From the NCBI GenBank assembly GCA_012518115.1, contig JAAYTD010000005.1, forward strand, positions 155-64,154: a DNA stretch of 64,000 bases. Direction: 5' to 3'. Of the stretch, positions 12,344 to 58,243 are shown piece by piece (the first letter of the stretch is position 1; every line of letters begins with the position of its first letter). The notes under the pieces were generated by a model. The model was not told where the DNA came from and did not search any database. It saw nothing but the letters and a program-made list of their open reading frames with translations. The position numbers and the translations under genes are program-made. Source of the stretch: Ignavibacteria bacterium (GTDB lineage: Bacteria > Bacteroidota > Ignavibacteria > Kapaibacteriales > UBA2268).

Positions 12344-12394
12344 ACTACCCCGTCAAACTAGCGCCTGCTACCCATTTTCACCGAAGGAGAATTT
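12344..12394 (-). repeat. Degenerate REP-like palindromic element (family A)
   Basis: Reverse complement AAATTCTCCTT...TTTGACGGGGTAGT matches the ends of other copies. Confidence 0.6.
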
Positions 12395-12530
12395 AGATAA
12401 TTCAATTGGCAATGTACCTAAAAAAAGTTGCAAAAGAAGAATACATATAAGTAGCTTCTACACATTAAAAAAACAGCTGCAATCCCAATAGGAAAGCAAC
12501 TGTTTCTAAATAATTAAATAACTATTTGAA

Positions 12531-13094
12531 TTACTCTTTCGTCATCTTGTTTAATTTACGGAGTTTGAATGAATAATAAATTGTATAAGCTCCAATAACA
12601 AGAAATGCAAGTGCTGTCCACACTACTACGCTGAATCCTGCAAATATAGGATTCCAGAGTAAAATAAAAGCAAGTATTAAGCCTAACACGGCATTCAACA
12701 TTAGAGTTCCCCAATCTAAAATACCGTATTGTTTCATCTCATATGCAGAAACAATTCCTGATATGGAGCGGAAAAGTAGGGTAAAACCTACATAATATGA
12801 CAAGGTAACCATCGTTGTCGAGGGATTGAGCAGGAGTAATATACTCACTACAATACTCAACACACCCAAAGCCAACGACCAACCCCAATTTTGATGTTTG
12901 TTAGATAGAGCAAACCCCACCTCAGCTATTCCGCTAAAAAGAAATCCGATAGCAAATACCAATGACAAAGCGACGTATGCAGTTAGCGGAGTAGCAAAAG
13001 TCCAAATACCTAAAACTACCAATACTATTCCCGCAATAAGTAGCAAATACCAGCGCTTTATACTCTTTTCTACTTTCTTGAATAATTTTTCCAT
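12531..13094 (-). CDS. HdeD/DUF308 family inner-membrane protein
   Basis: Six hydrophobic segments; WYLLLIAGI...GI....P and W...L..G.L repeats typical of DUF308. Confidence 0.8.
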   Translation of the reverse strand: MEKLFKKVEKSIKRWYLLLIAGIVLVVLGIWTFATPLTAYVALSLVFAIGFLFSGIAEVGFALSNKHQNWGWSLALGVLSIVVSILLLLNPSTTMVTLSYYVGFTLLFRSISGIVSAYEMKQYGILDWGTLMLNAVLGLILAFILLWNPIFAGFSVVVWTALAFLVIGAYTIYYSFKLRKLNKMTKE

Positions 13095-13153
13095 AACTAC
13101 GTTAGTTTCCTATAATTAATGTAAAAAAATAATTTAATTCCTATTTCTGATTG

Positions 13154-13161
13154 CAAATATA
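13154..13161 (-). promoter_or_regulatory. -7 promoter element (TATATTTG) for hdeD-like gene
   Basis: TAnnTTTG on the minus strand about 60 nt upstream of the start. Confidence 0.5.
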
Positions 13162-13200
13162 ATAATTTTTATTAAAAAAAAAAAACAACTTTTAAAATAA

Positions 13201-13232
13201 AAAAAAACGACCACTATTTTTTTAGTGGTCGG
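13201..13232 (-). terminator. Terminator after tricorn-like protease
   Basis: CGACCACTA-loop-TAGTGGTCG with an A tract on the left. Confidence 0.7.
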
Positions 13233-13266
13233 TTAATTTTACTAGTTGCAATGTAGTAATGCAGTA

Positions 13267-16200: not shown

Positions 16201-16536
16201 GTTAGCTGAATGTGTTGTAATAAACTTGTCGAAAGCTCCGTTTCTTGACATTAAAGCTATGTCTCTAAGCCCATTGTCGCGATAAGCTACAAATGCGATT
16301 TTCTCGCCGTCGGGCGACCATATCGGTTGGCTAGCAAATTCTGTGTTAGTAGTAAGCCTAATCGCATTGCCACCATTAGAACCTACAAGATAGATATTGC
16401 CCTTATATGAAAAGGCTATTTCTTTGCCGTCGGGAGAAATGCTCGGATAACGCATCCAAAGCGGATTTTCCTCTGCAGCAAAAACAAAAAGAGTCTGAAC
16501 TATAGTCAGATACAAAACTAATAACTTCTTCTTCAT
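13267..16536 (-). CDS. Tricorn-like S41 family peptidase (PD40 beta-propellers, PDZ, S41)
   Basis: RYPSISPDG/WSPDG repeats, LGELNVSH, GYVHI..M, DIRYNGGG, YSNAH, GMPVPGT, EPDI. Confidence 0.92.
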   Translation of the reverse strand: MKKKLLVLYLTIVQTLFVFAAEENPLWMRYPSISPDGKEIAFSYKGNIYLVGSNGGNAIRLTTNTEFASQPIWSPDGEKIAFVAYRDNGLRDIALMSRNGAFDKFITTHSANETPYAFTTDGKSIVFGAHYQDPVESALVPGIFPELYKVSVEGGLPEMILAYAAQNINFDRSGQKFLYQDLKGFENTWRKHHTSSVTRDIWEYDLSTGKSRILISRDGEDTDPVYAPDGKGFYFLSEKSGSFNVFYSPLDRPMEMKQITSFKDHPVRFLSVAQNGTLCFGFDGEIYVMESGATAPRKLNISLIDNPINNISKKTFTSGITSASNSPDGKQVAFTVRGNVFVTSTEYSTTKQISKDIAVEDDVDFGSDNRSLVYSSYRDGYWNVYTAKIARKEDPNFPNATLIDEQELIPDDKSEKQCPKFSPDGKEVAFVKDRLKLMVYNLDTKQQREITDGSFQHDRNGRIVYEWSPDGKWFALEYVSNGHGPYTNIGIVSAEKGCEIYNITNSGYFNSSPRWVMDGNAILFESEMYGMRNHASWGSMGDVMIAFLNREAYNRYKMNKEEAEILADAEKAAKKKDEESSSKKSDKKSKEKDDKKDKEEKDTKKTIEIDFANIDKRIERLTPNSSKLGSAIINKDATKLYYLSAVEKDYDMWVYDLKERSTKLLTKLNSGYASFSLDKDSKTLFIFSNKKIQKMDMGSEKITPISYSAEMKIDLDAEREAMFNQVYKEEKERFYVTDMHGVDWDALTQHYRKFLPHINNNFDFAEMLSEMLGELNVSHTGSGYRPAVSGERTAELGILYTNTNEGIRIDEILLNSPFDNFQSKAKAGDIIEKIDGDSVALRDYFELLAGKTGKNTLISLYSPSTGNRWEEVIKPISSGVLQNMLMERWLRHRAEEVEKLSGGRLGYVHIASMSDASFRKMYADALGKYYQKEGIVIDIRYNGGGRLHEDIETFFTGTKYLQQVIRGKDYCEMPSRRWNKPSIMLMCEADYSNAHGTPWVYRTMKIGTLIGMPVPGTMTSVNWVKLQDPALHFGIPVVGYRTAEGIYLENFDLEPDIKAPLDLDRAIKGEDSQIEAAVKALLKEIDAKK

Positions 16537-16579
16537 TACTTTTTTATGATTTATTTATTTGACTTAAAAAATTGTCTTA

Positions 16580-16587
16580 CAAAGATA
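16580..16587 (-). promoter_or_regulatory. -7 promoter element (TATCTTTG) for S41 peptidase
   Basis: TAnnTTTG on the minus strand 44 nt upstream of the start. Confidence 0.5.
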
Positions 16588-16755
16588 GTGAAAAAATGGC
16601 AATTAATGCTCAAGTTTATTAAATACTTTTCCTTGCAAGCTTTTTAATTGCCATTTCCCAAGCGAACAATCTCGCAGTTTTTTTATTTTAAATCGTAAAT
16701 TTTTCTTCTATAGCTTTCCAATCCTATTAAATTCTACTACTTACTTTAATCTTTT

Positions 16756-17400: not shown

Positions 17401-17650
17401 TTTAAAATTTTTATTTTTGACGAACTATTTTTACTTATTTTGGTCTATTCATTAATTTTTTTAGTTTTGAGTTACAATAATAATATTTTTTTTCCTAACT
17501 CCCAACAAAAAAAACAAAAAAAGCGATATTTTATTAAATTTTATTTCATTTTTACATTTTTTTTACATAAATTTATAGTTTTGATCTAATACACAATGTC
17601 AAAAAATATTTGTTTTTAAAAACTGTCTTTCATAAAAAGAGGTATTGTTA

Positions 17651-19125: not shown

Positions 19126-19258
19126 AAAATTCCCATTCCCAGAAGAGGTGGCAAGCGACAGCCTGACGGGGTAGTCGTTTCAACTCCGCTCTACAACCGA
19201 TATGCAAAAAATGAGGGCAGAACACTCTTATTTGCATATTCCACAGGAGGAGAATTTT
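19126..19258 (+). repeat. Composite REP-like element (family A, GTTTCAACTCCGCTC module, family B tail)
   Basis: AAATTCCCATT...GAAGAGGTGGCAAGCGACAGCCTGACGGGGTAGTC. The next module is the reverse complement of 23364-23381. CCACAGGAGGAGAATTT also occurs at 56959-56975. Confidence 0.75.
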
Positions 19259-20744: not shown

Positions 20745-20758
20745 AGCCTTAGTTCAAT

Positions 20759-20870
20759 AATTCCCCTTTGGGAACAAATGTCGGAGCGTATTGAATACGC
20801 CCTGCGTAGCCTGACGGGGTAGTCCCACACCTCCCCTGCTTCGCAGGTGCTCCTCTCAAGAGGAGAATTT
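20759..20870 (+). repeat. Composite REP-like element (A with nested GTAG-type palindrome, then B)
   Basis: AATTCCCCTTT..., GAGCGTATTGAATACGCCC, GCCTGACGGGGTAGTC, CCACACCTCCCC...CTCCTCTCAAGAGGAGAATTT. Confidence 0.8.
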
Positions 20871-23344: not shown

Positions 23345-23399
23345 ATAAAAATTTCCGCTTATTGAGCGAAGTTGAAACGACGAAACGAACACCCTTGTA

Positions 23400-23526
23400 C
23401 AAAAAAAGAGAGAATTGTTCCCTAGATCCTAGATTTATTCTCTCTTTTTTTATTATCTAGCTAATCCTTTTTCTTTTCAAAAACTAAAAATGATTGGATA
23501 GGTAAAAAATCAAAAGAATTAATTAG
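23400..23526. repeat. Left copy of direct repeat: bidirectional terminator plus remnant 3' end of methyltransferase gene
   Basis: Near-identical to 35197-35327. Minus strand 23461-23526 encodes LINSFDFLPIQSFLVFEKKKD*. Confidence 0.92.
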
Positions 23527-35109: not shown

Positions 35110-35161
35110 AAAATTCCCTTTTGGAATGAAAGGGTGGCAGGCAAAGCCGAACTGGGGTAGT
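35110..35161 (+). repeat. REP-like element (family A)
   Basis: AAATTCCCTTTT...AAAGGGTGGCAGGCAAAGCCGAACTGGGGTAG. Confidence 0.7.
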
Positions 35162-35196: not shown

Positions 35197-35327
35197 CAAA
35201 AAAAGAGAGAATTGTTCCCTAGATCCTAGATTTATTCTCTCTTTTTTTATTTTCTAGCTAGCTAGTCTTTTTTCTTTTCAAAAACTAAAAATGATTGGAT
35301 GGGCAAAAAATCAAAAGAATTAACTAA
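35197..35327. repeat. Right copy of direct repeat (terminator plus functional 3' end of methyltransferase)
   Basis: Aligns with 23400-23526; AAAAAAAGAGAGAAT...ATTCTCTCTTTTTTT hairpin. Confidence 0.92.
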
Positions 35328-35839: not shown

Positions 35840-35875
35840 CAAAAAAATATTATTATAGCAAGCAAATTGAATTAT

Positions 35876-36204
35876 AAAATTCCCATTCGGAACGACTGTT
35901 GGGGCGTATCGCATACGCCCTTATTGTCTGAACCATAATTAATAGATATTAAAGGATTAGCAGGATTTTTTCAATTAGCAATGAATTGTAGAGGCAATCC
36001 TTTGTGATTGCCATTATTTAAAATTCCTCTTTGTGGAATTGTCGGGGCGTGTCGCGACACGCCCTACAAAGTTTGACAGGGTAGTCCCACACCTCCCCCG
36101 CTTCGCGGGTACTCCTCTCAAAGAGGAGAATTTTCCGCTCAGCGATGTTAGCAAAATTCCACTTTAGAACGAAGGGGTGGCAAGCAAAAATTGACGGAGT
36201 AGTT
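35876..36204 (+). repeat. Long composite REP-like mosaic
   Basis: Modules GGGCGTATCGCATACGCCC; TTGTCTGAA..AGGATT; GTAGAGGCAATCCTTTGTGATTGCC; GGGGCGTGTCGCGACACGCCCTAC; family B; family A. 35971-36086 matches 56809-56924 with 2 mismatches. Confidence 0.88.
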
Positions 36205-37997: not shown

Positions 37998-38059
37998 CTA
38001 GCCTGACGGGGTAGTCTTTTCTACGAAGGGGTGTCAAGCGATAGCTTGACGGGGTAGTC
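37998..38059 (+). repeat. Tandem family A REP-like halves between the parS sites
   Basis: GCCTGACGGGGTAGTC then GAAGGGGTGTCAAGCGATAGCTTGACGGGGTAGTC. Confidence 0.8.
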
Positions 38060-40715: not shown

Positions 40716-40926
40716 ACTACCTCGTCAAACTTGTGAAGGGCGTATGCAATACGCCCCGACATTTGCGAAGGAGAATTTTAAATAATGGCAATCACAAAGG
40801 ATTGCCTCTACAATTCATTGCTAATTTAAAAATCCTGCTAATTCTGTAATCCTGTAAATCCTGATTCAGACAATATTATGGGCGTATTCAATACGCCCCA
40901 ACAGCTCAAACGAGAGTGAATTTTAA
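40716..40926 (-). repeat. Composite REP-like mosaic, inverted copy of 35876-36086
   Basis: Reverse complement has the same module order (GTAG-type palindrome, TTGTCTGAATCAGGATT, GTAGAGGCAATCC, palindrome, TTTGACGAGGTAG). Confidence 0.88.
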
Positions 40927-41302
40927 AAACATTTTTTTGATAAATAATTTAATTTTTTTTGTAGACTATGAAAAAAATACAAAAAATGTAAAAATTCAAT
41001 AAATTTCACATAAATATTAACAAATTTTCATTATTTGTTTGTTTTTTTTAAAAAAAAGTATAAATTTGTAAAATATTTGTAGATTTTTTCAAATTATTTT
41101 CGTATTTTTATTTTTGTATACCTTAACAAAGAAGAAGCAAAAAAGTGTAGTTTGTATTTTTTTAAAAAACTATATATGTTTCAAATAACCAAATTAATAT
41201 AATTTTAATAGAAATTTAACTAAATTATTCTATACATTTTTTTATATTTGTATATCCAAATTATATGTAATTTAAAATAAATTTAGGGTTAGACAAAAAA
41301 TG

Positions 41303-41370
41303 ACTAGCCCGTTAAACTTCGGAGAGCGTATCGCAGTACGCCTCAACAATTTACCGAAGTGGAATTTTAA
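41303..41370 (-). repeat. Degenerate REP-like element
   Basis: GACTAGCCCGTTAAAC...GAGCGTATCGCAGTACGCCTC...GGAATTTT. Confidence 0.55.
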
Positions 41371-48000: not shown

Positions 48001-51000
48001 CAACTGTTAATACAACAGCAGGTAATATAAAGACAGGTCCTATTAAGCATATTCCAAGTAATACTCCATACGTTTTACAATTTGGAGCAACTCATGAAAC
48101 TTACAGTGTAAATAGAACTCCATTTACTTGTACTGCTCATTTACCAGCAACTAATGCTCAAAATGTTGCAGTTGATGCTGATATTGTTTTAACATTTGAT
48201 CGTGCATTCAAAAATATAGCAAATGCTCCAACATTAAATGCTGCGTATACTCTTACTGCTGGTGGTGGTACTACAAATCTAACAGTAAAATCTAATACTG
48301 CTAATACAATAACTTATGGAGTTGCCAACGGTTATCTTGCTTATGCAGCAGAATATACTATTTCTCAAGTTACTAACACATTAACAGACCTTTGGGGAAA
48401 TACTTGCCAACCAATACAAACTTGGAAATTTAAAACCAAAACAGCACCAGTAGTTAAACATATTGTAAGAGCAAATCAAGCAGATGAATACACAAAAGAT
48501 GCTTCAGTAGATTTCACAGTAGAACTTGCTGATGCACCTACAGTAGCAGCTACTGTAGATGATTTTAGTATTATTTGGAATAATGGTACTGCTCATACAG
48601 CAACAGTAACAGATGCAGTAGAGGATCCTAACAATCCAAAAATTTATACAGTAACAGTAAGTATTCCTGATAATGCAAAAGGCGAATTAGGTTTGAAATA
48701 TAGTGGTAATGTAGCTTCTACTACAAACGAAACTTACAATGTGAACAGAAAACCATTAACTTGTACTTATTTCCCGACTAGCGATGGCAATACTTCAGTT
48801 AGTTCTGTTGTTAGCTTGACATTTAGTGATGAGATAGTTAATCCAACAACAGCTCCAGTATTAACAGCTAATAACAATATTAGTCTAACAAGTGGAACAG
48901 TTGATCAGGATAACAATAAAATCACTTATTCAGTTGCTAACAATGGCTATTGGGCTTATAATACACAATATACAATTAGTGTAGGCGCTAATAATATAGT
49001 AACAGACCTTTGGGGTAATACTTGTACAGTAGAAGGTTGGACCTTTAAAACAGAAAAAGCACCAGTAGTTGAACATATTGTAAGAGGAAATCCAACAGAC
49101 CAATTCACAAAAGAAGCGTTAGTAAACTTCACAGTAACATTTGATAAAGCACCTGTGTTTGCAATCACAGGTACAACAGGTCATTTTACACATGTTTGGA
49201 ATCCTGTTCAAACTCTTGGATCAATAACTAATGTTGTACAAGATAATAACAATCATAAAGTTTATACGGTAACAGTAAGTATTCCTGATAATGCAGTAGG
49301 CGAATTAGGCTTAAGATATAATAATGCACAAGCTACTATTACAAACGAAACTTACGATGTGAACAGAAAAGTCTTACAATTAACTAAAACACCGACAGGT
49401 ACTAATGTTGCTGTTAATACAACTAATATTGTTTTAACATATACTAGTACACTAGCGAATGGAACAGTAGCTCCTACATTGAAACTTAAGGAAGGTAATA
49501 CTAGTACTTCTATAGCTGCAGGAACTGTTGATGTTAATGCCATGACAATTACTTATACGCTTCCAGCTTTAGCTCATGGAACAACATATGAAGTTGAAGT
49601 AACTGCGGGAACAGCAGAAGTAACAGATAAATGGGGCAATACTAATGAATTAGAAAATTGGACATTTACAACAGTACCAGCACCTCCAGCAGTAATTGCA
49701 ACAAATCCTGGTACTAATGGAACAGGTATTACGGTTAATTTAACTACAATTACTATAACATTTGATAAAGATGTAACAGCAACAAATAATGTAAGCCTTA
49801 TTTTATACAAGGGTACAACACCTACAGCTACAATGACTTCTGCAAATGTTAACGGTGCTGTGGCAACATTTACTCTTCCAACAGGAACAGTTTTAGATTA
49901 TGAAACAGTATACACTGCAAAATTAGCAGCAGGTTCATTCCATAATTCAAATGTAGTAAATAATGCATATGAATGGAGCTTTACAACTGAAGATGTACCA
50001 GTAGTTACAAGTATTGAAAAAGGAGCTCCAACAAGCAAATACACAAATGCAGCTTCAGTAGCTTTCAAAGTAACATTTGATAAAGTACCTGCGTTTGCGT
50101 TGACAACAGATATGTTCTCACCTGTTTGGACTGTTGGTAATGCTTCTCAATCAGGCACATCAATATATAGTGTTACTCCTACTAACGATCCTGGAATTTA
50201 TACAGTAACAGTAAGTATTCCTGATAATGCAGTAGGTGAATTAGGTTTGAGATATGGTACTCAAGCAGATCCTAGCACAAACGACAAGTACAATGTTAAC
50301 AGAACTGCATTAATTTGTAATTCTTGTTTACCAACAGGTACAGATGTTGCAGTTAATTCTGATATTACTTTAACGTTTAATCGTGCATTAAAGACAACAA
50401 CTGCTCCTGGAATAACAGTTAATAATACTTCATATGCAGGAGTTATTTCAAGCAATACAATAACTTATGACCTTCCTATTTTAGCTTATGAAACACCATA
50501 TAATGTTGCTATAGTAAGTAATGGCACAGTAGCAGATGACTGGGGTAATACTTATACAATAACAAATTGGAACTTTACAACAGAATCTAAACCTGTAGTT
50601 AACAGTATTAAGAGATCTAACCCAACAGATAAATTCACAAGTGCAGCTTCAGTAGTATTCGAAGTAACATTTAATAAAACACCTCTACCTGTACTTAATA
50701 CAGGTGATTTTGGTACTACTTTGAATGGCTGTTTAGTAAGCGAAGTGTCAAGTATTAATAGTGTTTATACAGTAACAGTAACTATTCCTGATAATGCAGA
50801 AGGAACATTAGGTTTAACAGTACCTACTTACACTGTACCATCACCAGGAGGAAACAACAACGAAACTTACGATGTGAACAGAAAGCCATTAACTTATGCT
50901 TCTTCACCGACAAACGGTGCTACAATTACTGATCTTAATACTGATATTGTTTTGACGTTTAATAATACCTTAAAGCCTACAACGAATGTACCTACATTAG

Positions 51001-53885
51001 TAGTTAATGGTAATAGTTATAATGGAGTTGTTTCTGGCAAAACAATAACTTATACACTTCCTACATTAACTTATGGATCAACATATACTGTTGATGTAAC
51101 TAATCCACAAGTAATAGATCTTTGGAATAATACTTGTAATGTAACATCTTGGAGCTTTAATGTACCAGCAAGACCAGCAGTAGCTAGTTCAACTCCTACA
51201 GGTACTGGTGTTGCTATTAACACTCAAGTTACTATAACATTTGATATGTCTGTACAGTTAGTAGGCACGGCTGCAACAGCAACTCTAACTCCAAGTGTTG
51301 GTAATTCTATAACATTAACAAATGGTACACTATCAGGTGGTAATAAATTAACATTTATTTTACCAAACGACTTAGCTTACAATACGACATATACATTAAG
51401 TATAGGAGCAGATCAAGTTAGGAGAACTGATTACAATATTACTAATGCTGCAAATAATTCTATTGCAACATTTACAACAGTAGCAGCTCCGGCAACTCCG
51501 CCAGTAGTAATTGGAAAAACTCCAACAGGCACAACAGTTGCGGTTAATCTTCCTACAATTACAGTAACATTTGATAGACCTGTAATAGTGAATACTCCAA
51601 GTCTTACTTTATATAAGGGTGGAACAGCTGTAGCTACAATTACTTCTGCAACTCTTAGCAACGGTAATGCAACTGCTACATTTACTCTTACTTCAGGAAC
51701 TCCTTTAACTTATGGTACAGTATATACTGTAACATTGGCAGCAAATTCATTCACAGCTGCAAGTTTAGGAAATGAAGTAGAGACCTGGAACTTTACAACA
51801 GAATCTAAACCTGTAGTTGACAAGATTAAGAGATTTACCCCAACAGTTGAATTAACAAGTGCAGCTTCAGTAGTATTCGAAGTAACATTTAATAAACCAC
51901 CTCAACCTGTACTTAATACAGGTGCTTTTGGTACTACTTTGAATGGATGTTCAGTAAGCGGCGTGTCAAGTATTGATAATGTTTATAAAGTAACAGTAAG
52001 TATTCCTAATAATGCAGAAGGAACATTAGGTTTAACAGTACCTACTTACACTGTACCATCACCAGGAACCAACAACGAAACTTACAATGTTAATAGAAAG
52101 CCATTAACTTGTGTAATAGCACCACAAGGCATAGTTACTGATCTTACTACTGATATTACTTTAACGTTTGATCGTAGTTTAGCGACAACAGCTCCTACAT
52201 TATCAGTTAATGGTACTAATTATACTGGAACAGGCAGCAGTAATGTAATAACTTATGCGCTTCCTAATTTAGAGTATGGAAAAACATATAATGTTTCTGT
52301 AGTAAGCAATGGCACAGTAGCAGATGACTGGGGTAATACTTATACAGTAACAGATTGGAGCTTTAATGTACCAGCAAGACCAGCAGTAGCTAGTTCAACT
52401 CCTACAGGTACTGGTGTTGCTATTAACACTCAAGTTACTATAACATTTGATAGATCTGTACAGTTAGTAGGCACGGCTGCAACAGCAACTCTAACAGGTG
52501 GTGGTAGTACAATCACATTAACAAATGGTACGCTATCAGGTGGTAATAAATTAACATTTATTTTACCAAACAACTTAGCTTATGGTACGACATATACATT
52601 AGGTATAGGTGCAGATCAAGTTAGGAGAACTGATTACAATATTACTAATGCTGCAAATAATTCTATTGCAACATTTACAACAGAAGCAGCTCCGGCAGCT
52701 CCAATAGTAAGTAGTTCAGTTCCTGGTAATGTAACTAATGTTGATGTTAACACTCAAGTTAGCGTAACATTTAACCAAACTATAGAGTTAGCAACTACAC
52801 CAGCAAAAGTAACTTTAACTAATGTAAGTAGTGGTTCTATAACAACGTTAGAAGCAACTACAGTAACCGGTAACAATCAATTAACATTTACTTTACCAAG
52901 CAACTTAGCTTATGGTACTCAATACAGATTAGGTATAGCTGCAGGTCAAGTTAAGAATAGTGCTAACGTTCAGAATGCTGCAAATGCTAATATTGCAACA
53001 TTTACAACAAAAGCACTACCAACAGTAAGTACAACAAATCCTGTTTCAGACGCAACAGGTGTTACTGTTAATCTTAATCAAATTACAGTAACATTTGATA
53101 AAGCTGTAGCAGCAACGATTAATGTAAATCTTACTTTATCTCAGGGTGGAACAGCTGTAGCTACAATTACTTCTGCAACTGTGAATGGTAGTGTAGCAAC
53201 ATTTGCTATTCCTTCAACAGTTACTTTAGATGGTAATACACAATATACTGCAACATTAGCAGCAAACTCATTCACAGCTTCAGGCTTAGGAAATGCGGCA
53301 CACACTTGGAACTTTACAACAGGAGCAGCAGGTCCATCAACGTTGTTATTAACTCTTAGCTCGACTAGAAATACAGTTACTGTGTCGTGGGCATCACAAA
53401 ACGGTGTAACTTATACAGCAACATTGTATAGTGATGCTAACTATCAGAATCAAGTTGGCAACCCAGGAACTGTAGATGGAAATGGTTCAGATGTTAATTA
53501 CACTTTCACTAATCTAACCAGAAACACGATGTATTATGTAATAGTAACAAGTGCTAATGAAGAAGGTGAAGGTTCTATAGCAACACGTAAGTACAAAGAA
53601 TCTATTGTATCAATTAATGGTATCTTTGAAATCAGTGAAGTAACACCAATGCCAATCAAGACAGATGCTCAGTTCTCTTTAGCAACCAGCAAAGCAGGAC
53701 ACTTAACAGTAACTATCTACGGATTAGCAGGTGAAAAGCTAATGGATGTACTTTCAATAGACCTCAACGCAGGCGATGAAATACTAGTACCAATGTCCTT
53801 TGCAAACTTTGCAAGTGGTACATATACTTTAGTAGTTCGCTTAGACGGCGAGATGATACAACGACGTATTGTTATTAACAAATAA
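42060..53885 (+). CDS. Giant Ig-like (SbsA/Big_5-type) repeat surface protein with T9SS C-terminal sorting domain; remainder of frameshifted gene
   Basis: Repeated VA.N..I.LTF...L.Y.T.Y...DLWGN..W.F.T modules; terminal VTPMPI...TVTIYGLAGE...FASGTYTLVV...RRIVINK; no signal peptide of its own. Confidence 0.85.
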   Translation: MKDNSDPVTAEYNLLVTDVDAQTTTTTYLGEITPAEILANMTYTIDGLTENAEYEIVLQAIEPGTANTRNSNIEEITTTLAQNFAASANPSSNNELGLTITITPTNKTITSTNKAFTIQLEFAQYSDSPLGGPPETFRMNTLEPVTLTWNGAVGNNVAAGSLQLVSQWWVNNTTHVLNYVYRDDAPEVDGSIRFSVSATADGQTSPTEVGFNNDILKGGSEGTNNQIIFEMIPPALEEGGFAMKDLDADNTAIAGEIILTKHVGAQFIFTFNEVIKLDGKRATDMGGLSSEANTALANSFMEIVTSEDPVLAALITNLRDGNPSAKPTISLVDKTDPSAHSVVTVTWTFPRGSSGYAASQIKSYIATLKDYLDNENVLKNIFINLNNTLVTDLFTNVMKAITVENDKPKFQINRAVPRIIDITMTGLQADAAGYANCGEGGTLQGYINENSSNGTQTGFKIDITFDKEMNSTNVGTNANVKLVKLSSGNNGFTDIAQTVYTTPSGNTNPAITWSAANSIDNSKLTWTVTGLEEQDAADYTNLYVMVNVFAGVSDGPAMLPTVTYSDAGDNATIWNAILEAKGAMLSFAQKPFRLDLIDEFKGIAFNNLNGTTYTGVEPITSNVATIHPKHESTESQTLGVALMLSNPSFASLFNDENNKVQLTKVQKYETGYQDVDNTNGEYFATGTPISSVTDTKLCKINSGGDGYDASPKHPGIYIPIDLGATAKNPANYEDKYNLTFTYTNSVTGRAKTCTLETYVDYTQPTITDIGVKDGSSVSNDDQYINRDTLNAATGTTITREYLIIFDKKIDPTTLTTSNLRLHVEDETGVITPIPGYVTIDNNIAWDATGKLATVTISLLKGSLWDINYNKISLEVINHESVKSTTGATLDKDYVVDNGEVGAAEESAIKSAYIIDAVTPLVQAKPYNTDYEYSVEDNGFLKYCAVDVINSHRLPNDKFILTFGFEEDVVVSADDLADMLKIGLEGYEREATGIKYYNAEDVEITDLTATQGVCRKIVFTYDIGSASTAIDLVTGPNAIKVVFDNSLNFVADKAGNKINFNSPTLVRSIYYDIEANNTDNVLAVTNGGTVINATTTPAGDIFYISKECKVRFTVGAYNEHDTYIVKLVKDVEEAPIPNPDLIAGIETNPPLNSTQVSPNGNILTTTLTLAEMFPNNVWTPGDKYYIVVKTLDQAQNKTVATSGNEYTVAKNPALLTAIKPPKYDEHAATPQLADKKIRKIEFTVDTDADMSDVVQAGKEITFTPTTQQSVPQKYTLSNSDQIGYNSVDRKVTLTLATPLELPSYSSLYNVKIQQGAFINVLGSPMAEATWTIKTLPQLDVVSVEYVQADGTSFAHNPAQLRFEPPTGMYNTLGIKITFNQNITFSQADIELSTSYTNLYGSANDNPLPFVYEVGNTHNDPKNVIILKANRDGDITAGMYTANPPNLEVGADLLIRGETQYTPTLSDNGKVIAGGVELTSFPSFTPNQVVNQVVRVDAVRPVITKDFGTPSSTIQLDDNLEVPVNRTFAVYTPENIDDLTVFKVGNNTKGFTITDHNISPTGTMLWIRGALGENQAFEEEITNIDYTNTAACEALKFPALPEGGYFIRLQHTDKFENTNDQTEVTEGVADYYFVVDKAPVITAVENATINMIVGNASSFKAMYGAENTKEFRYRINEQFLNINTDNKGKTTLTFTKENDVRTAIVETHFVQVGTTHNHKASIFVNPGVNVAKLYNAQGEEIGTLAGFLEGLTAGIWNINVKVTDKCGNTSELENAMSINVRSKPYVVKYRINGTDLIEDGSTPAKYVLPNDGKVGFTGNTIDFIFDRNILDYNLSTFTTYPDFEYSVIDDTLRMSQKSTSLLTSNTEYQFQLPVDVVKEDNNIGIDIGNVASNVVLMKTDYAIITGIDRIISAGNTDDPGEYIQAGDEDAYFRITFNGAINPANLSVEMLDAAAAGYVGVTVHTISLIPNKLNEICVYITGIPTVNTTAGNIKTGPIKHIPSNTPYVLQFGATHETYSVNRTPFTCTAHLPATNAQNVAVDADIVLTFDRAFKNIANAPTLNAAYTLTAGGGTTNLTVKSNTANTITYGVANGYLAYAAEYTISQVTNTLTDLWGNTCQPIQTWKFKTKTAPVVKHIVRANQADEYTKDASVDFTVELADAPTVAATVDDFSIIWNNGTAHTATVTDAVEDPNNPKIYTVTVSIPDNAKGELGLKYSGNVASTTNETYNVNRKPLTCTYFPTSDGNTSVSSVVSLTFSDEIVNPTTAPVLTANNNISLTSGTVDQDNNKITYSVANNGYWAYNTQYTISVGANNIVTDLWGNTCTVEGWTFKTEKAPVVEHIVRGNPTDQFTKEALVNFTVTFDKAPVFAITGTTGHFTHVWNPVQTLGSITNVVQDNNNHKVYTVTVSIPDNAVGELGLRYNNAQATITNETYDVNRKVLQLTKTPTGTNVAVNTTNIVLTYTSTLANGTVAPTLKLKEGNTSTSIAAGTVDVNAMTITYTLPALAHGTTYEVEVTAGTAEVTDKWGNTNELENWTFTTVPAPPAVIATNPGTNGTGITVNLTTITITFDKDVTATNNVSLILYKGTTPTATMTSANVNGAVATFTLPTGTVLDYETVYTAKLAAGSFHNSNVVNNAYEWSFTTEDVPVVTSIEKGAPTSKYTNAASVAFKVTFDKVPAFALTTDMFSPVWTVGNASQSGTSIYSVTPTNDPGIYTVTVSIPDNAVGELGLRYGTQADPSTNDKYNVNRTALICNSCLPTGTDVAVNSDITLTFNRALKTTTAPGITVNNTSYAGVISSNTITYDLPILAYETPYNVAIVSNGTVADDWGNTYTITNWNFTTESKPVVNSIKRSNPTDKFTSAASVVFEVTFNKTPLPVLNTGDFGTTLNGCLVSEVSSINSVYTVTVTIPDNAEGTLGLTVPTYTVPSPGGNNNETYDVNRKPLTYASSPTNGATITDLNTDIVLTFNNTLKPTTNVPTLVVNGNSYNGVVSGKTITYTLPTLTYGSTYTVDVTNPQVIDLWNNTCNVTSWSFNVPARPAVASSTPTGTGVAINTQVTITFDMSVQLVGTAATATLTPSVGNSITLTNGTLSGGNKLTFILPNDLAYNTTYTLSIGADQVRRTDYNITNAANNSIATFTTVAAPATPPVVIGKTPTGTTVAVNLPTITVTFDRPVIVNTPSLTLYKGGTAVATITSATLSNGNATATFTLTSGTPLTYGTVYTVTLAANSFTAASLGNEVETWNFTTESKPVVDKIKRFTPTVELTSAASVVFEVTFNKPPQPVLNTGAFGTTLNGCSVSGVSSIDNVYKVTVSIPNNAEGTLGLTVPTYTVPSPGTNNETYNVNRKPLTCVIAPQGIVTDLTTDITLTFDRSLATTAPTLSVNGTNYTGTGSSNVITYALPNLEYGKTYNVSVVSNGTVADDWGNTYTVTDWSFNVPARPAVASSTPTGTGVAINTQVTITFDRSVQLVGTAATATLTGGGSTITLTNGTLSGGNKLTFILPNNLAYGTTYTLGIGADQVRRTDYNITNAANNSIATFTTEAAPAAPIVSSSVPGNVTNVDVNTQVSVTFNQTIELATTPAKVTLTNVSSGSITTLEATTVTGNNQLTFTLPSNLAYGTQYRLGIAAGQVKNSANVQNAANANIATFTTKALPTVSTTNPVSDATGVTVNLNQITVTFDKAVAATINVNLTLSQGGTAVATITSATVNGSVATFAIPSTVTLDGNTQYTATLAANSFTASGLGNAAHTWNFTTGAAGPSTLLLTLSSTRNTVTVSWASQNGVTYTATLYSDANYQNQVGNPGTVDGNGSDVNYTFTNLTRNTMYYVIVTSANEEGEGSIATRKYKESIVSINGIFEISEVTPMPIKTDAQFSLATSKAGHLTVTIYGLAGEKLMDVLSIDLNAGDEILVPMSFANFASGTYTLVVRLDGEMIQRRIVINK

Positions 53886-53902
53886 CAATATAAACTGATG
53901 AG

Positions 53903-54003
53903 GAAATAGTGAGGGCTTCTGCCCTCACCATTTCTACTAAATGAAAACGTAAACATGATAAATACATAATAAGTGAGGGCAATTTTTTGCCCTCACTTTT
54001 TTT
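53903..54003 (+). terminator. Two consecutive terminator hairpins sharing a GTGAGGGC/GCCCTCAC stem
   Basis: Hairpins at 53903-53934 and 53971-54003 (second has a T tail). Confidence 0.7.
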
Positions 54004-54233
54004 AAAATTCCCCTTCGCAGAAGGGGGCGGCAAGCGTAGCTTGACGGGGTAGTCTATTTTATCAGCATCGGGATTTACAGGATTAAAGAATTAGCAGGAT
54101 TTTTTAAATTAACAATGAATTGTAGGGGCAATCCCTTGTGGTTGCCATTATTTAAAAATTTCCCTTGCCTGAAGGCAGGGCGACAAATTCCCCTTCCCAG
54201 AAGGGGTGGCAAGCGAAGCCTGACGGGGTAGTC
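54004..54233 (+). repeat. Composite REP-like mosaic (A, AGGATT module, GTAGGGGCAATCCC module, A)
   Basis: Two complete family A units, e.g. AAATTCCCCTTCCCAGAAGGGGTGGCAAGCGAAGCCTGACGGGGTAGTC. Confidence 0.88.
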
Positions 54234-54306
54234 TATTAAAAATCATAAATTATTTGGAAAATCGTTAAAAAATTGATAAATTGTAAAATAAAATTTTCAT
54301 AATGTT

Positions 54307-54963
54307 ATGGTAAAAATTTTATCTATAGAGACAAGTGGGAAAGTTTGTAGTGTTGCACTTTTATCAGACAATGAATTGTTAGCAAGCTATAACTTATATT
54401 ACGGCAACAAGCACGACAAATTTTGTGCTGAATTTGTTCGTCGTATATTATCGGACAATGACATTGATTTAGCAGATTTATCGGCTATAGCTATTTCTAT
54501 TGGTCCCGGCTCTTTTACGGGTTTGCGTATAGGTTCGGCTGTAGCTAAGGGATTGTCGTTTGACGATGCTCCGCCTTTAATAGCGGTTCCAACGCTTTCG
54601 GCTTTAGCTAATCATTTTTCTAAGTATCTTTCATTAATGCAAGTTATGCAAGATATTATAGTTATAGTTCCTTCGCATTCTGATATTGTTTATTTTCAAA
54701 AATTTACTTATAGAGGCGAGCCGCTATCTGAGCCATCTTTGTCCTCATTAGAAGATTTACGTTCTGAAATTTTAATGCATAATTTAGTGGTAGTTAGCAG
54801 CACAGATTTATCTTCGTTTTTTTCTGATGTTCTTTATTTTGAAGAATGTCTTGATGCTGGGCTTATTGGCAAATATGCTTTTAGTTTGTATAGCGAGAAT
54901 AGATTTACTTTATCATCGGATTTAACGCCTATGTATGTCCAAGATTTCGTGCCGAAGCTATAG
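54307..54963 (+). CDS. tsaB: tRNA threonylcarbamoyladenosine biosynthesis protein TsaB
   Basis: ILSIETS...CSVAL, IAISIGPGSFTGLRIG...AKGL, P.YV C-terminus. Confidence 0.93.
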   Translation: MVKILSIETSGKVCSVALLSDNELLASYNLYYGNKHDKFCAEFVRRILSDNDIDLADLSAIAISIGPGSFTGLRIGSAVAKGLSFDDAPPLIAVPTLSALANHFSKYLSLMQVMQDIIVIVPSHSDIVYFQKFTYRGEPLSEPSLSSLEDLRSEILMHNLVVVSSTDLSSFFSDVLYFEECLDAGLIGKYAFSLYSENRFTLSSDLTPMYVQDFVPKL

Positions 54964-54984
54964 AGAAAGCTATGGATATTTTTT

Positions 54985-55378
54985 TGGCTGTGGATAATGG
55001 ACAATTGATAATGATTTTTTAACCGCGAAGAACGCAAAGATTTACGCAAAGAACGCGGAAGACAGATTTTCCACAAGGTTGGGTAGCAAACTCCCCTTCC
55101 TAATTGTTGGGGCGTATTGCATACGGCCATAATATTGTCAGAATCGGGATTTACAGGATTACAGAATTAGCAGGATTTTTTCAATTAGCAATGAATTGTA
55201 GAGGCAATCCTTTGTGATTACCATTATTTAAAATTCTCTTTCGGGCAGCTTTGTCGGGGCGTGTCGCGACACGCCCTACGTAGCCTGACGGGGTAGTCCC
55301 ACACCTCCCCCGCTTGCGCGCGGGTACTCCTCTCAAGAGGAGAATTTAACGACAAACCCCGTAGGGGTGAGATATTTT
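54985..55378 (+). repeat. Large multi-family repeat cluster
   Basis: AATGGACAATTGATAATGA; AACCGCGAAGAACGCAAAGA-like direct repeat; full composite at 55088-55347; CCCCGTAGGGG palindrome. Confidence 0.8.
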
Positions 55379-55429
55379 TGTTATTCAAAATGATATAATT
55401 TCTTTGATTATTTTATAGTTAAGTTCAAT

Positions 55430-56776
55430 ATGAAAAACATACTTCTGACATTAATTTTTTTCTTTTTATTTATATTTAGTTTGTTTTCTCAAACAAGTAT
55501 ATTAGGTACGGAGCATATAGAAGCGAAGTTATTAGAGGTAGAGACCTTGATTTCGCAACAAGATTATTCTTCTGCTATCTCTATTTTAAAGTCAATAGAA
55601 GCGGAATATCCTGAAAATCTTAGTGTTCTTTTTAATTTAGGTTTATGTTATTTGCAAACAGGTCGTGCTGATATAACTAAGCGATATTTAAATAAATACA
55701 TGGAGTTAGAAAAAAAAGACTATGCTGCTTATAATCTATTAGGTATAGCTTTTGAGAACTTGGGTGAAATAGATAGCTCTTTTGCTTGTTTTAATAAAGC
55801 TATAAAAATTAATGATAAGTTACCTGAAGCATATTTTAATCGTGGCAGACTTTATTTTTCTCAATCGAAGTTTGAATTAGCTTTGAAAGACTTCTTAAAA
55901 GCAAAGAGCGATGATAAAAACTTTAACTTAAATATGATGTTAGCTCAAACTTACTATGCTTTAGGAAAATATGCTGAAGCATTAAAAGAATATAAAGTAA
56001 ACCTGGATTTAAAACCAAACGATTTTTTAGTTCTAAAAAATCTTGGAAATACTGCTTCACAACTTAAAGATTTTAAAGCAGCTATAGAATATTATTCGCA
56101 AGCTTTAGAAATACAAGATGATGATGTTGATATCTTAAACAATCGTATGCTATGCTATAACGAATTAGAAGACAGTGAAAATTCCGAAAAAGATGCCCAA
56201 CGAATAAAAGACATTCAAGCCGAAAAAGGTGTACAAATAAGTATGCTGCAATACAAAATGCTAAGATCGGAAGATGATGTAATATGGATGCGTATCCCAA
56301 AGAACTGGCGTGCTTTCGTTTCCGATAATGCTAAAAGTAAAGATAGCGTGATCATTAAATTCTTTAACCCTGATTTCGAGCATAACGTAAATAAAGAAAA
56401 TTTTACTTATTCTTTCGGTGGCGAGCTTAAGATTATAAAAAATATAAGCTTAGACACATCTCAATCTATAAATATAGCACGTGCGATTATAAGTGAAAAA
56501 TATGAAAGGGAAAGATTAGAAGAAGCTCAACACTACTATTTATATAAGCCTACATTCAAAAAAATTTTCAATCCGACAGAAAAACTAAATCAAGGCTTAG
56601 TAAAAGTACAGTGCCAAGAAACACAAGATTCCGAAAGAAGAATTATTCACGAATATCACGCAGTTACAAATAACGGCTGGCTAATAACTTTATATCTTTG
56701 GCTACCTGAAGAAGATAGCTTTCACTATGAAAAATTATTAGACTTTATTATAGAATCATTGCAAATTAATAGATAA
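55430..56776 (+). CDS. Secreted tetratricopeptide repeat protein
   Basis: Signal peptide; about 6-7 TPRs (LFNLGLCY, AYNLLGIAF, AYFNRG.LY, LKNLG); uncharacterised C-terminal domain. Confidence 0.82.
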   Translation: MKNILLTLIFFFLFIFSLFSQTSILGTEHIEAKLLEVETLISQQDYSSAISILKSIEAEYPENLSVLFNLGLCYLQTGRADITKRYLNKYMELEKKDYAAYNLLGIAFENLGEIDSSFACFNKAIKINDKLPEAYFNRGRLYFSQSKFELALKDFLKAKSDDKNFNLNMMLAQTYYALGKYAEALKEYKVNLDLKPNDFLVLKNLGNTASQLKDFKAAIEYYSQALEIQDDDVDILNNRMLCYNELEDSENSEKDAQRIKDIQAEKGVQISMLQYKMLRSEDDVIWMRIPKNWRAFVSDNAKSKDSVIIKFFNPDFEHNVNKENFTYSFGGELKIIKNISLDTSQSINIARAIISEKYERERLEEAQHYYLYKPTFKKIFNPTEKLNQGLVKVQCQETQDSERRIIHEYHAVTNNGWLITLYLWLPEEDSFHYEKLLDFIIESLQINR

Positions 56777-56780
56777 AAAA

Positions 56781-57041
56781 TTGTCAGAACCGGGATTAAC
56801 AGGATTTTTCAATTAGCAATGAATTGTAGAGACAATCCTTTGTGATTGCCATTATTTAAAATTCCTCTTTGTGGAATTGTCGGGGCGTGTCGCGACACGC
56901 CCTACAAAGTTTGACGGGGTAGTCTATTACCACACCTCCCCGCTGCGCAGGTACTCCTCCACAGGAGGAGAATTTTAAAATTCTTTCTTCGCAAATGTTG
57001 GGGCGTATTGCATACGCCCTACGTAGCCTGACGGGGTAGTC
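56781..57041 (+). repeat. Composite REP-like mosaic
   Basis: Contains a 116-bp near-identical match to 35971-36086, family B, and a further chimeric A unit ending next to the lpxK stop. Confidence 0.88.
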
Positions 57042-57044
57042 TAT

Positions 57045-58040
57045 TTAAGACGAGACACATTCTTTGATCGCTGAAATAAAATCTCCTTTTATTATAACTT
57101 CTAAAGGAAAGACAAAAATATCTATATTGTTATTTATAAACTCTGCCTTATATTTTTTCAATTTTACAGCATCTTTTTCTGTTGTAGCTATGCAAGCAGT
57201 ATTATTTCTTTTTGCCGAATTTATTATTTTTAATATATCGCTTTTCGTATAATTATGGTGATCGGAAAAATTTATTTTTTCTATTATACAATAATTATTA
57301 TTAGTTAGCATCTCAAAGAAGTTTTTCGGATTTGCTAATCCTGCTATAGCTATATATTTTTTGTCTGCAGGTGAAGCATTATTTTTATTAAATAAGCTAT
57401 AGGCAGAAGCTTGCACAAAATTAACTTCAAATATTTTTAAGTTCGGTTTCGTATTTTTCGGTAATTTCCTTATTAAATCTTGAATTTTTGCTCCTTTTGT
57501 CAAACAAATAATATCAGCTCTTGCTAAAGCATCAAAACTTTCCCTTAATCTGCCTTTTGGCAGAAGAAAAGGATTTTCTAAAGACACTCTATCTATTAAA
57601 ACAATATCACACTTACGGCTAAGTTTTCTATGCTGAAAACCGTCATCAAGAAGAATGTAATCTACATTAAATAACTTTTCGGCACTCAAACCTGCCTCAT
57701 ATTTCTTTGAATGTACTAAAACCGGACAGCACGTTTTTTCTGCAATCAACAACATTTCATCACCCGCTTCCGACACGTCTGCTAAAATGTTTTTTCCGTC
57801 GGAAACAACGATTTCTCCCTTACTTTTCCTTTTGTATCCACGACCAATAACAGCAACTTTGTTCCCTAACTCCGAAAGTTTGTTAGATATATATATTACA
57901 AGAGGTGTTTTTCCCGTTCCGCCTACGGATAAATTTCCAACGCTTATAACAGGGGTTTTACATTTAACAGGGAGTATTTCTCCCGTATCAAATTTGCTGT
58001 TTCTTTTGCGAATAAAATATGCGAATAATTTTTCTAACAT
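57045..58040 (-). CDS. lpxK: Tetraacyldisaccharide 4'-kinase
   Basis: PVISVGNLSVGGTGKTP, RGYKR, GDE..LIA, LDDGFQHRKL.R, P.GRLRE, TTEKDAVKL. Confidence 0.95.
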   Translation of the reverse strand: MLEKLFAYFIRKRNSKFDTGEILPVKCKTPVISVGNLSVGGTGKTPLVIYISNKLSELGNKVAVIGRGYKRKSKGEIVVSDGKNILADVSEAGDEMLLIAEKTCCPVLVHSKKYEAGLSAEKLFNVDYILLDDGFQHRKLSRKCDIVLIDRVSLENPFLLPKGRLRESFDALARADIICLTKGAKIQDLIRKLPKNTKPNLKIFEVNFVQASAYSLFNKNNASPADKKYIAIAGLANPKNFFEMLTNNNYCIIEKINFSDHHNYTKSDILKIINSAKRNNTACIATTEKDAVKLKKYKAEFINNNIDIFVFPLEVIIKGDFISAIKECVSS

Positions 58041-58080
58041 ATAAAAATATATAAAAGTTGTTTTGTTTTTTTGCTAATAG

Positions 58081-58243
58081 ACTACCCCGTCAGGCTTCGC
58101 CGTCCACCCCTTCTGAGAAGGGGAATTTGCTGCCTTTCGCAGAGCGGAAAATTCTCCTCTTGAGAGGAGTACCCGCGTAGCGGGGGAGGTGTGGGACTAC
58201 CCCGTCAAACTGCGTTTGACACCCCTTCTGGGAAGGGGAATTT
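58081..58243 (-). repeat. Composite REP-like mosaic (A, B, A in reverse orientation)
   Basis: ACTACCCCGTCAGGC...GGGGAATTT; CTCCTCTTGAGAGGAG...GGGGAGGTGTGG; second A unit. Confidence 0.85.

Follow-up and report, generated by a model that had tools for sequence, protein, structure and literature searches.

To our knowledge, the BoxC/PIT/TM_ECO repeats of Escherichia coli have been known for decades without a known function, mode of spread or enzyme, and DUF559, a very widespread nuclease-like protein family that includes E. coli YcjD, has as far as we know never been tested. Here we analyse a family of composite palindromic repeats that lies between the genes of an uncultured Ignavibacteria bacterium. 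The repeats were studied in a stretch of 64,000 nucleotides, referred to below as the window (positions 155 to 64,154 of contig JAAYTD010000005.1; C34:155-64154), and in the assembly from which it comes (GCA_012518115.1; 2.48 Mb, 92 contigs, 31% GC, 97% complete). We consider it probable, at roughly 0.6, that the repeat arrays are the solo and paired ends of a selfish cassette that encodes a DUF559 nuclease, mixed with other hairpin families.

TM_ECO has the consensus CCCTCNCCC-N3-6-GGGNGAGGG-N3-GGGNGAGGG, and Holder et al. (2015) sought mobility genes near its copies and found none (PMC4666352). Repetitive extragenic palindromic (REP) sequences of the GTAG class have a published geometry, a 20-40 bp imperfect palindrome with an unpaired GTAG at the foot of the stem (PMC3733652). 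A published classification places DUF559 itself alongside Vsr and a homing endonuclease from a group I intron, PDB entry 3r3p (PMC3424549). The family described here has the BoxC/TM_ECO architecture with an added mini-hairpin, and it is set in mosaics that resemble bacterial interspersed mosaic elements (BIMEs) and Neisseria intergenic mosaic elements (NIMEs). Its link to DUF559, the occurrence of in-frame cassettes in restriction-modification genes and the mirror-rule covariation of its blocks are not described in the literature that we searched.

Modules A and B are one unit type with a mirrored third block

A generic pattern served to collect units both in this genome and at loci in other organisms. 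The two main modules, A and B, are one type of ~50-nt unit, here named U, which reads 5' to 3' as AATT, a C-block, a loop of 3-5 nt, G-block 1, TG, a GC mini-hairpin (hairpin 2) and G-block 2. The C-block is a pyrimidine tract (CCCCTTC in A, CTCCTCT in B) that pairs with the purine G-block 1 as hairpin 1, while G-block 2 is GGGGTAG in A and GAGGTGT in B. When A copies are sorted by their flanks, they read AAATT, CCCCTTC, loop, GAAGGGG, T, hairpin 2 and GACGGGGTAGT, and their hairpin 2 covaries between CAAAC/GTTTG, CAGGC/GCCTG and CAAGC/GCTTG. Module B, on the opposite strand, has the same layout, with AAATT, CTCCTCT, loop, AGAGGAG, TA, a CCCGC..GCGGG hairpin and GGAGGTGTGG. In module E, also an A-type unit, a GTAG-tagged hairpin takes the place of the middle part and reads GGGCGTAT..ATACGCCC or an GTGTCGCGACAC variant.

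G-block 2 mirrors G-block 1, with G opposite G and either T or A opposite A. The three blocks covary in six subfamilies that always keep this relation: a G-block 1 of GAA(GGGG) occurs with a G-block 2 of (GGGG)TAG, GGA with TGG, AGA with TGT, AAA with TAT, AGAGGAG with GAGGTGT, and GGAGGAG with GAGGTGG. The rule holds at all seven positions in 135 of the 145 external units, compared with a mean of 47 and a maximum of 65 when partners were shuffled in 1000 trials, and mutual information is highest at the mirror pairs x2-y2 and x1-y3. A reading of the two G-blocks as direct repeats was rejected, as the positions that vary sit on the 5' side of the GGGG core in block 1 and on its 3' side in block 2. 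Hairpin 2 is represented by 75 distinct sequences in the same 145 units, with an average of 5.05 paired bases versus 2.39 after shuffling. This three-way covariation is comparative evidence that selection acts in the cell on a triplex-like fold, or on a protein that reads the three blocks.

The core of hairpin 2 is GCGAAGC or GCGNNAGC; the GCGNAGC / GCGNNAGC core is an extraordinarily stable DNA mini-hairpin (PMC13037366). DNA folding prediction returned both hairpins and left the 3' G-block free (z-scores -2.6 to -3.1), and found module C unstructured. Because G-block 2 mirror-matches G-block 1 under purine-motif rules, a single U strand can, in this model, fold into a hairpin, a mini-hairpin and a third strand, forming an antiparallel purine-motif intramolecular triplex. 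The loops are of a DNA type (cGNAg) rather than RNA tetraloops and therefore point to a fold of single-stranded DNA (ssDNA), not of RNA. No Rfam family matched at gathering thresholds across the whole window, and a permissive search of 53900-58300 gave chance-level matches only, with E up to 5. A literature search with unit sequences likewise returned only chance primer matches, and the junction pattern CTGACGGGGTAGTCCCACACCTCCCC had no match in the named genomes scanned.

Units are abundant and lie between genes

Exact TGACGGGGTAGT occurs 154 times on 51 contigs of the 2.48 Mb assembly, and the reversed control pattern does not occur at all. Fuzzy matching yielded ~220 A, ~174 B and ~50 E, about 440 units in total, of which more than 95% are intergenic in a genome that is 88.5% coding. 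No real unit was found within the open reading frames (ORFs) of this genome, the 16 candidates being overlaps with ORF ends or false fuzzy matches. An earlier, sequence-only reading of the window had noted that its repeat family would fall if the copies were confined to the window or were assembly artefacts. Both possibilities are excluded: copies lie on many contigs beyond the window, and metagenome contigs 100% identical to the genome bear the same arrays. Contigs JGI24707J26582 and JGI24708J26588, from metagenomes of the source biogas reactors, match it at 100% identity. Units were also ruled out as the cause of assembly breaks, since only 6 of 184 contig ends lie inside one.

Spacers with units number 189 of 1536 and comprise 34% of convergent, 9% of tandem and 10% of divergent spacers. 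In tandem spacers, A units run in the same direction as the upstream gene 64 times and in the opposite direction 33 times; the orientation of B units is unbiased (36 versus 39). The units thus have the high copy number, extragenic position and enrichment at gene 3' ends of REPs. Tail-to-tail dimers (n=48) have gaps of 1 or 6-7 nt and head-to-head dimers (n=49) gaps of 4 or 20-22 nt, the 20-22 nt gap being the F module. Blocks of several modules are copied as wholes, with variable end points. Clusters alternate in orientation and contain few conserved linkers, as BIMEs do, a likeness at the level of pattern, with E. coli REP sequences absent. Tracts of 4-7 tandem copies of the heptamers GGAAGAC/GGAAGTC often directly follow A-unit tails (contigs C42, C50, C69, C72 and others).

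Units flank DUF559 genes in many phyla

This genome has exactly one DUF559 gene, which lies outside the window on the minus strand at C53:2269-2784 (PF04480, E = 2.7e-29). On its upstream side, ~80 nt away, is an A unit; at the other end, an inverted A unit runs over the stop codon, with two B units beyond it. The C53 copy retains all 20 residues that are invariant in the DUF559 clade, including D84, E95, D97, H101 and D102, and the nearest solved structure to DUF559, 3HRL, was deposited as an 'endonuclease-like protein'. The sequence-only reading had suggested a search for genes of REP-associated tyrosine transposases (RAYTs), IS200-like transposases or small endonucleases flanked by the same modules. 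Of these, the genome has this nuclease gene between A units, and no intact RAYT or Y1 gene.

The association was also observed in other organisms, whether we started from the protein or from the DNA. From the protein, 35 DUF559 loci were found in named genomes of many phyla, and in ~30 of them units directly adjoin the ORF; the dominant cassette order is U(+), DUF559, U(-), with the unit tails toward the gene. From the DNA, loci were fetched solely by a 16-mer of the A tail and queried with the C53 protein, which placed DUF559 genes in 4 of 33 loci with units and in 1 of 174 without (Fisher p = 0.002). These homologues are 56-67% identical and usually lie 10-40 nt from the unit, and the sole unit-less exception (L092) has its unit cut off at the locus edge. 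Among the single-copy units of our sample of the phylum, three of five lie in loci that also bear a DUF559 gene; the unit abuts the gene in L237 (G283:C2:306250-314250), and in L234 and L235 the gene is 0.7-1.4 kb off within the same restriction-modification locus.

In E. coli K-12 the sole DUF559 gene is ycjD; a canonical TM_ECO lies ~170 nt downstream of it, and a degenerate TM_ECO covers its stop codon. With 23 TM_ECO in 4.64 Mb, the chance expectation of one in such an interval is ~0.004. A duplicated fragment of the ycjD 3' end lies between the two motifs (L286, NC_000913.3:1351200-1351760). No paper linking DUF559 with repeats was found in the literature searched.

In about 20 of the loci found from the protein (L239-L267, in named genomes of many phyla), a single reading frame spans, in order, the N-terminal part of a host protein, a unit-encoded peptide, DUF559, a second unit-encoded peptide and the C-terminal part of the host. 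The first peptide contains ..SPPxEGWxxxxGVV and the second ..TPPxEGN. The host gene hsdR carries the cassette at one and the same junction in 5 loci; hsdS carries it in ~5 loci, with WFVDFEFP on one side and GYKSSGG on the other, and a type ISP/IIG-like methyltransferase gene does so in at least 9. These junctions recur in several phyla. A pheT-like gene is the host in L237. Once the cassette is removed, host sequences align in one piece to the uninterrupted hsdS and hsdR genes on C70 of this genome; because the C70 genes align straight across the junction, empty sites exist. Other genomes therefore show the conserved sites and empty alleles of a homing cassette, and the C53 gene in this genome is free-standing. 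Head-to-head dimers are translated in frame (..TPSLRDTPLKEGNSPSMKGWQAKPDGVV..) within DNA methyltransferase ORFs of three metagenome contigs (L216, L121 and L135), with no DUF559 gene in the DNA examined at these loci.

Units recur in distant lineages

A 16-mer of the A-unit tail, scanned against named genomes and metagenomes, matched mostly by chance and also brought out dozens of true, near-identical units in metagenome-assembled genomes (MAGs) of Cyanobacteriota, Burkholderiaceae, Bacillota, Saccharibacteria, Hydrogenedens, Gammaproteobacteria and Kapaibacterium. Because true units are found in MAGs of many phyla, the unit is a cross-phylum element that has expanded in this lineage rather than a private repeat. 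In a set of 60 relatives, copy numbers are 0-2 except in one other genus (G027), which has a moderate ~20. Of 401 genomes of the same phylum, only this one is many-copy; five more carry a single unit apiece, and the hairpin 2 of that unit differs from genome to genome and is fully compensated in each. The DUF559 clade was absent from the 72,556 plasmids searched, and none of the 44 viral contigs that matched the 16-mer carried a real unit.

Partial and composite forms of the unit were also seen. In a Burkholderiaceae MAG, an A unit is followed by three tandem 20-nt pieces that consist of the tail only (GACGGGGTAGTTAGATGAAT; L054:5619-5690), and similar tandems lie upstream of DUF559 in L267 and L264. 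In the same-genus genome G001, a large N6-methyltransferase/restriction-type gene (L009:1270-5510, on G001:C7) sits between direct repeats, each made of an E-like unit and ~150 nt of AT-rich DNA, and a third copy of this repeat lies further along the contig. The region has the appearance of an island that entered by duplication at a unit.

Proposed mechanism and alternatives

We infer that the DUF559 nuclease moves the units. In the reading we favour, U units would be the ends of a selfish cassette encoding this Vsr-like, PD-(D/E)XK nuclease. One cassette would have been kept on C53, and several hundred gene-less derivatives would have piled up mainly 3' of genes, interleaved with modules C, K, D, F and J, with the GTAG hairpins in E and K and with module H, left from a decayed RAYT-like transposase. 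The nuclease would recognise the folded or duplex unit and nick beside it, and break repair or template switching against another unit-bearing locus would then copy single units or blocks of an array. Such a process would amount to homing or gene conversion, not classical transposition, and tail-to-tail dimers would be cassettes minus the gene. Because multi-module blocks are copied with variable end points, copying by repair fits better than transposition with fixed ends.

Several observations weigh against this explanation. A single nuclease domain is incapable of strand transfer, and the entry of units into hundreds of non-homologous sites is left unexplained. Same-genus genomes are too divergent to define an exact insertion boundary or a target-site duplication. 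Since a lone nuclease cannot explain non-homologous entry and no target duplication is defined, we hold the full mechanism to ~0.6. In addition, 29 of the 33 external unit loci have no adjoining DUF559 gene, a few cassettes (L241, L250, L257) have units in other orientations, and no close DUF559 gene accompanies the three E-like units of G001. The in-frame cassettes may represent as few as three insertion events, later spread with their host genes, and the mirror covariation among the 145 external units was counted over copies from only about six independent subfamilies. The small modules C, K, D, F and J are unrelated to U and have no assigned origin. Stable triplex was undetected in vivo for TM_ECO by Holder et al. 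(PMC4666352), and the literature searched contained no cleavage, binding or mobility data for any DUF559 protein.

Less probable, and in our view unlikely, is that DUF559 is a free-riding homing endonuclease gene that targets pre-existing unit dimers, which would provide it with a cut site and homology arms. The units would then spread by other means, such as host replication or recombination at ssDNA folds, or another enzyme. The gene sits exactly at a junction of the kind found in the gene-less tail-to-tail dimers, which are common, and this speaks for a free rider. The persistence of units in G001 without DUF559, the separation of units and gene within one restriction-modification locus in L234 and L235, and the general lack of mobility genes near TM_ECO sites (Holder et al., PMC4666352) also agree with it. 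However, genomes with one to three units have them beside DUF559 (G020; L234, L235, L237), so the units seem to arrive with the gene, and ~30 of 35 DUF559 genes are flanked by units even in restriction-modification genes that are otherwise without them.

GTAG-tagged hairpins and the remnant of a Y1 transposase

The sequence-only reading had described a non-autonomous composite element, mixing several repeat families in the manner of BIMEs and of REP doublets forming hairpins (REPINs), and had cited as established that GTAG-ended REPs are mobilised by RAYTs. Its view of the elements as a non-autonomous, BIME-like mosaic of several repeat families, copied as multi-module blocks, stands, whereas a RAYT as the agent for the main modules does not. 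That the family as a whole consists of REP/BIME/REPIN repeats moved by a RAYT, which was missed by the assembly or recently lost, is improbable, although part of the evidence is of the expected kind. The high copy number, extragenic location and 3'-end bias are typical of REPs. The inner hairpins of E (GTAG-GGCGTAT..ATACGCC, minus strand) and of K (GTAG-A-GGCAATC..GATTGCC), which bears the second GTAG-tagged hairpin, GTAGAGGCAATCC..GATTGCC, are canonical and have the GTAG-REP geometry given above. No partner enzyme for these E and K hairpins was found in this genome. The dominant A and B units lack this geometry: their GTAG is no 5' tag beside a palindrome and lies within G-block 2 (GGGGTAG), 4 nt past hairpin 2, the third block, whose sequence is a mirror of hairpin 1's purine arm. 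This argues against their mobilisation by a RAYT.

A search for Y1_Tnp (PF01797)/RAYT genes gave no match at E <= 0.001 in the 97% complete genome, and E <= 0.01 added only a remnant at C8:4900-5022. The remnant consists of 48 C-terminal residues with stop codons and adjoins E, C and H modules. The relative G041 has an intact Y1 gene (L289), and the remnant matches its C-terminus at 62% identity (E = 2e-18). The G041 gene is flanked by CGACCCC-N4-GGGGTCG hairpins that resemble module H, a hairpin with 58 copies in this genome, one of them in the window at 55355. A RAYT-type system was therefore probably once present here and has since decayed, and it may be the source of H; RAYT mobilisation is plausible for a minority of the modules, namely H and the GTAG-tagged hairpins in E and K. 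For the remainder, it is DUF559 and not Y1 that the same units flank across phyla, with no U-flanked RAYT in ~80 loci, and the Y1 gene of G001 is one of an ordinary IS605-type tnpA-tnpB pair with no such repeats near it.

Two further classes of element were tried and rejected. CGTC-REPs end in an unpaired CGTC and have a stem of 8-9 bp that opens with A/T pairs, 4-5 nt in the loop and a CCA tail (Di Nocera 2013, PMC3733652); on the reverse strand, the repeats here read CGTC-A(R)(R)C-TTC-G(Y)(Y)T-GCCA, with GTC paired, a stem of 5-7 bp and a loop of 3 nt. For a miniature inverted-repeat transposable element (MITE) derived from an insertion sequence (IS), tail-to-tail dimers do look like inverted ends, but no target duplication is definable and no parent IS was found. 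An IS110 gene had no match above the cut-off in this genome, and self-BLAST detected only paralogues of 85-92% identity and no identical IS copies. A MITE was rejected because there is no multi-copy IS, no IS110 and no intact Y1 gene, and the sole flanked gene encodes a nuclease.

A host-serving role as terminators, mRNA 3'-end stabilisers or protein-binding sites, selected after genes and present in numbers set by function rather than by selfish spread, is compatible with the other explanations and not exclusive of them, but has very little probability as the explanation: the excess in convergent spacers, the 64 versus 33 bias of A units toward the direction of the upstream gene, and the end of the reverse-read unit as a GC hairpin plus AATTTT are set against a patchy distribution that a conserved host function would not produce (~150 copies here, 0-2 in 58 of the 60 relatives, and never more than one in any of the 400 other genomes sampled from the phylum), unbiased B units, the lack of an Rfam match, DNA-type cGNAg loops, and PIT/TM_ECO elements without promoter or terminator activity in earlier work cited by PMC4666352.

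Composite arrays in the window

Loci in the window were mapped by repeat finding, direct reading and module-by-module fuzzy matching. The sequence-only reading had listed 13 loci, and all 13 carry the modules it described, at its coordinates or a few bases off. It had also reported a recurring arrangement of ~210 bp. This corresponds to the order C-K-E-B at 35924-36133, 55135-55347 and 56781-56975, all on the plus strand; a partial inverted copy at 40716-40873 bears out its claim of both orientations, and another partial copy lies at 54059-54153. The segments 35971-36086 and 56809-56924 differ at exactly 2 of 116 positions (98% identical), as it had stated, and from these two differences at least one copying event was recent.

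The array at 35875..36203 (+) starts with an E head with GTAG-tagged hairpin (35875-35922) and continues with C (35924-35970), K (35973-36019), E (36020-36085), B (36086-36133), F (36131-36152) and an A-type unit (36154-36203), spanning repeat families D3, I4 and I8. The inverted array at 40716..40928 (-) contains E (40716-40784), K (40780-40826), C (40828-40873) and an E head with hairpin (40877-40928), and accounts for inverted repeats I1-I5. At 54004..54232 (+), an A-type unit (54004-54053) is followed by C (54059-54104), K (54107-54153), a head-only D hairpin (54156-54184) and a second A-type unit (54185-54232). The array at 56781..57040 (+) comprises a short C (56781-56809), K (56811-56857), E (56858-56923), B (56929-56975) and E (56979-57040). 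On the minus strand, the array at 58081..58273 holds an A-type unit (58081-58128), F (58128-58151), B (58149-58198), another A-type unit (58196-58244) and D (58248-58273), and includes inverted repeats I6-I10.

Between a tsaB-like gene and a TPR gene, the array at 55088..55369 (+) consists of an E head with hairpin (55088-55131), C (55135-55180), K (55183-55229), E (55232-55297), B (55298-55347) and the H hairpin (55355-55369). Because the tsaB-like and TPR genes are directly adjacent in the same-genus genomes G001 and G002, the 467-bp array at 54963-55430 represents an insertion. The comparison of empty and filled sites proposed in the sequence-only reading thus succeeded for the site itself and not for its boundaries, which could not be defined: same-genus genomes are 65-70% identical to this one in genes, and their amino-acid identity is 47%.

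The remaining loci are simpler. An A-type unit at 19127..19175 (+) lies immediately 3' of a fumarase-like gene and is followed at 19176..19258 (+) by a J module and a degenerate B-type head hairpin that ends in GGAGGAGAATTT. A tail-to-tail dimer at 20756..20870 (+) joins E (20756-20823) to an abutting B-type unit (20824-20870). At 37998..38058 (+), a tail fragment (37998-38015) precedes a headless A-type unit (38026-38058) with a perfect hairpin 2, GTCAAGC/GCTTGAC. Degenerate single units make up three loci: an A-type unit at 12344..12394 (-), assigned by fuzzy match and sequence, an A-type unit at 35111..35161 (+) with the tail GAACTGGGGTAGT, and an E unit at 41303..41366 (-). The weakest of the 13, near 23360, is only a short J/F-like fragment (23357..23379, -).

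Other features of the window were noted in passing. The 3' end of a 3941-residue ORF (42060-53885, +) abuts the array at 54004; the ORF contains many diverged internal repeats of ~200-400 nt (families D2-D18) and probably encodes a surface protein with immunoglobulin-like repeats. A terminator-like hairpin, AAAAAGAGAGAATTGTTCCCTAGATCCTAGATTTATTCTCTCTTTTT, closes the spacers at 23406-23460 and 35210-35260, 11.8 kb apart. A gene for a secreted PHP-domain protein (30-1196, -) is 90% identical in DNA to its G001 copy (L009:1-1327, on G001:C7). This identity, compared with 65-70% for other genes of G001, suggests that the gene was horizontally transferred recently. In both genomes, the gene is followed by a shared terminator hairpin and TTGTCTGA, and then by differing repeat modules.

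Significance

A broader and more tentative proposal, to which we give a little under even odds, is that triplex-type units and DUF559 together make up a class of minimal selfish DNA element that spans phyla and has so far gone unrecognised. In such a class, a cassette of ~0.5-0.7 kb (unit, DUF559, inverted unit) would home into conserved sites, notably restriction-modification genes, be translated there in frame with its host, and shed gene-less units that could reach hundreds of copies. If this is true, DUF559/YcjD would be the long-sought partner of BoxC/PIT/TM_ECO, as RAYT is for REPs, and the recognition structure would be a folded ssDNA triplex-hairpin. This genome is an unusually clear case, with a single DUF559 gene set between inverted units and with solo units in the hundreds; the linkage is seen again at ~30 independent loci across many phyla and at ycjD of K-12. 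Should the link prove functional, an old question would become testable at the bench, and a second enzyme-plus-repeat partnership would stand beside RAYT/REP. The in-frame cassettes in hsdR, hsdS and methyltransferase genes matter for the annotation of restriction-modification systems.

Comparison with known systems

The dRS3 repeat (ATTCCC-N8-GGGAAT) has no sequence similarity to the units beyond an ATTCCCC head. NIMEs share with the arrays the interleaving of several small repeat families in spacers, and Rickettsia palindromic elements (RPEs) share with U, as seen in other genomes, the presence of copies in frame within protein-coding genes; no linkage of NIMEs or RPEs to DUF559 is described in the literature searched.

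Homing endonucleases are alike in both protein and placement. I-Bth0305I (Vsr-like/EDxHD, PDB 3r3p) belongs to the fold group of DUF559 (PMC3424549), and, like homing endonuclease genes, the cassettes occupy conserved positions in hsdR, hsdS, the ISP/IIG-like methyltransferase and pheT, for which empty homologues exist. Unlike homing endonuclease genes, they involve no intron or intein, being bounded by inverted triplex-type units that are read through in frame; moreover, the gene in this genome is free-standing and the units have multiplied without it.

REP/BIME/REPIN elements (PMC3733652) are likewise short, hairpin-forming, high-copy and extragenic, favour convergent and unidirectional spacers, and form head-to-head and tail-to-tail dimers and mosaic clusters. 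In both systems a single-copy enzyme gene is bracketed by inverted repeats, and E and K hold true GTAG-tagged hairpins. The bracketed gene differs, however, encoding a DUF559 PD-(D/E)XK nuclease here rather than an HUH/Y1 transposase, and the main unit has three covarying blocks and a second hairpin instead of a single tagged palindrome.

BoxC/PIT/TM_ECO differs from the present units in block sequence (CCCTCNCCC/GGGNGAGGG/GGGNGAGGG versus CCCCTTC/GAAGGGG/GGGGTAG and CTCCTCT/AGAGGAG/GAGGTGT), in block length (9 nt versus 7 nt) and in loop 2, which is 3 nt in TM_ECO and a covarying GC mini-hairpin of 12-20 nt here. The AATT head, the embedding in larger mosaics and the uncultured, low-GC biogas-reactor host also set the units apart. 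The two nevertheless share the order C-block, loop, G-block, loop, G-block, with a third block that mirrors the second (T/A opposite A). Both are strictly intergenic, come as two subtypes that often form inverted pairs, are patchy among close relatives and have no linked transposase, and in K-12 TM_ECO lies next to ycjD, the only DUF559 gene of that genome.

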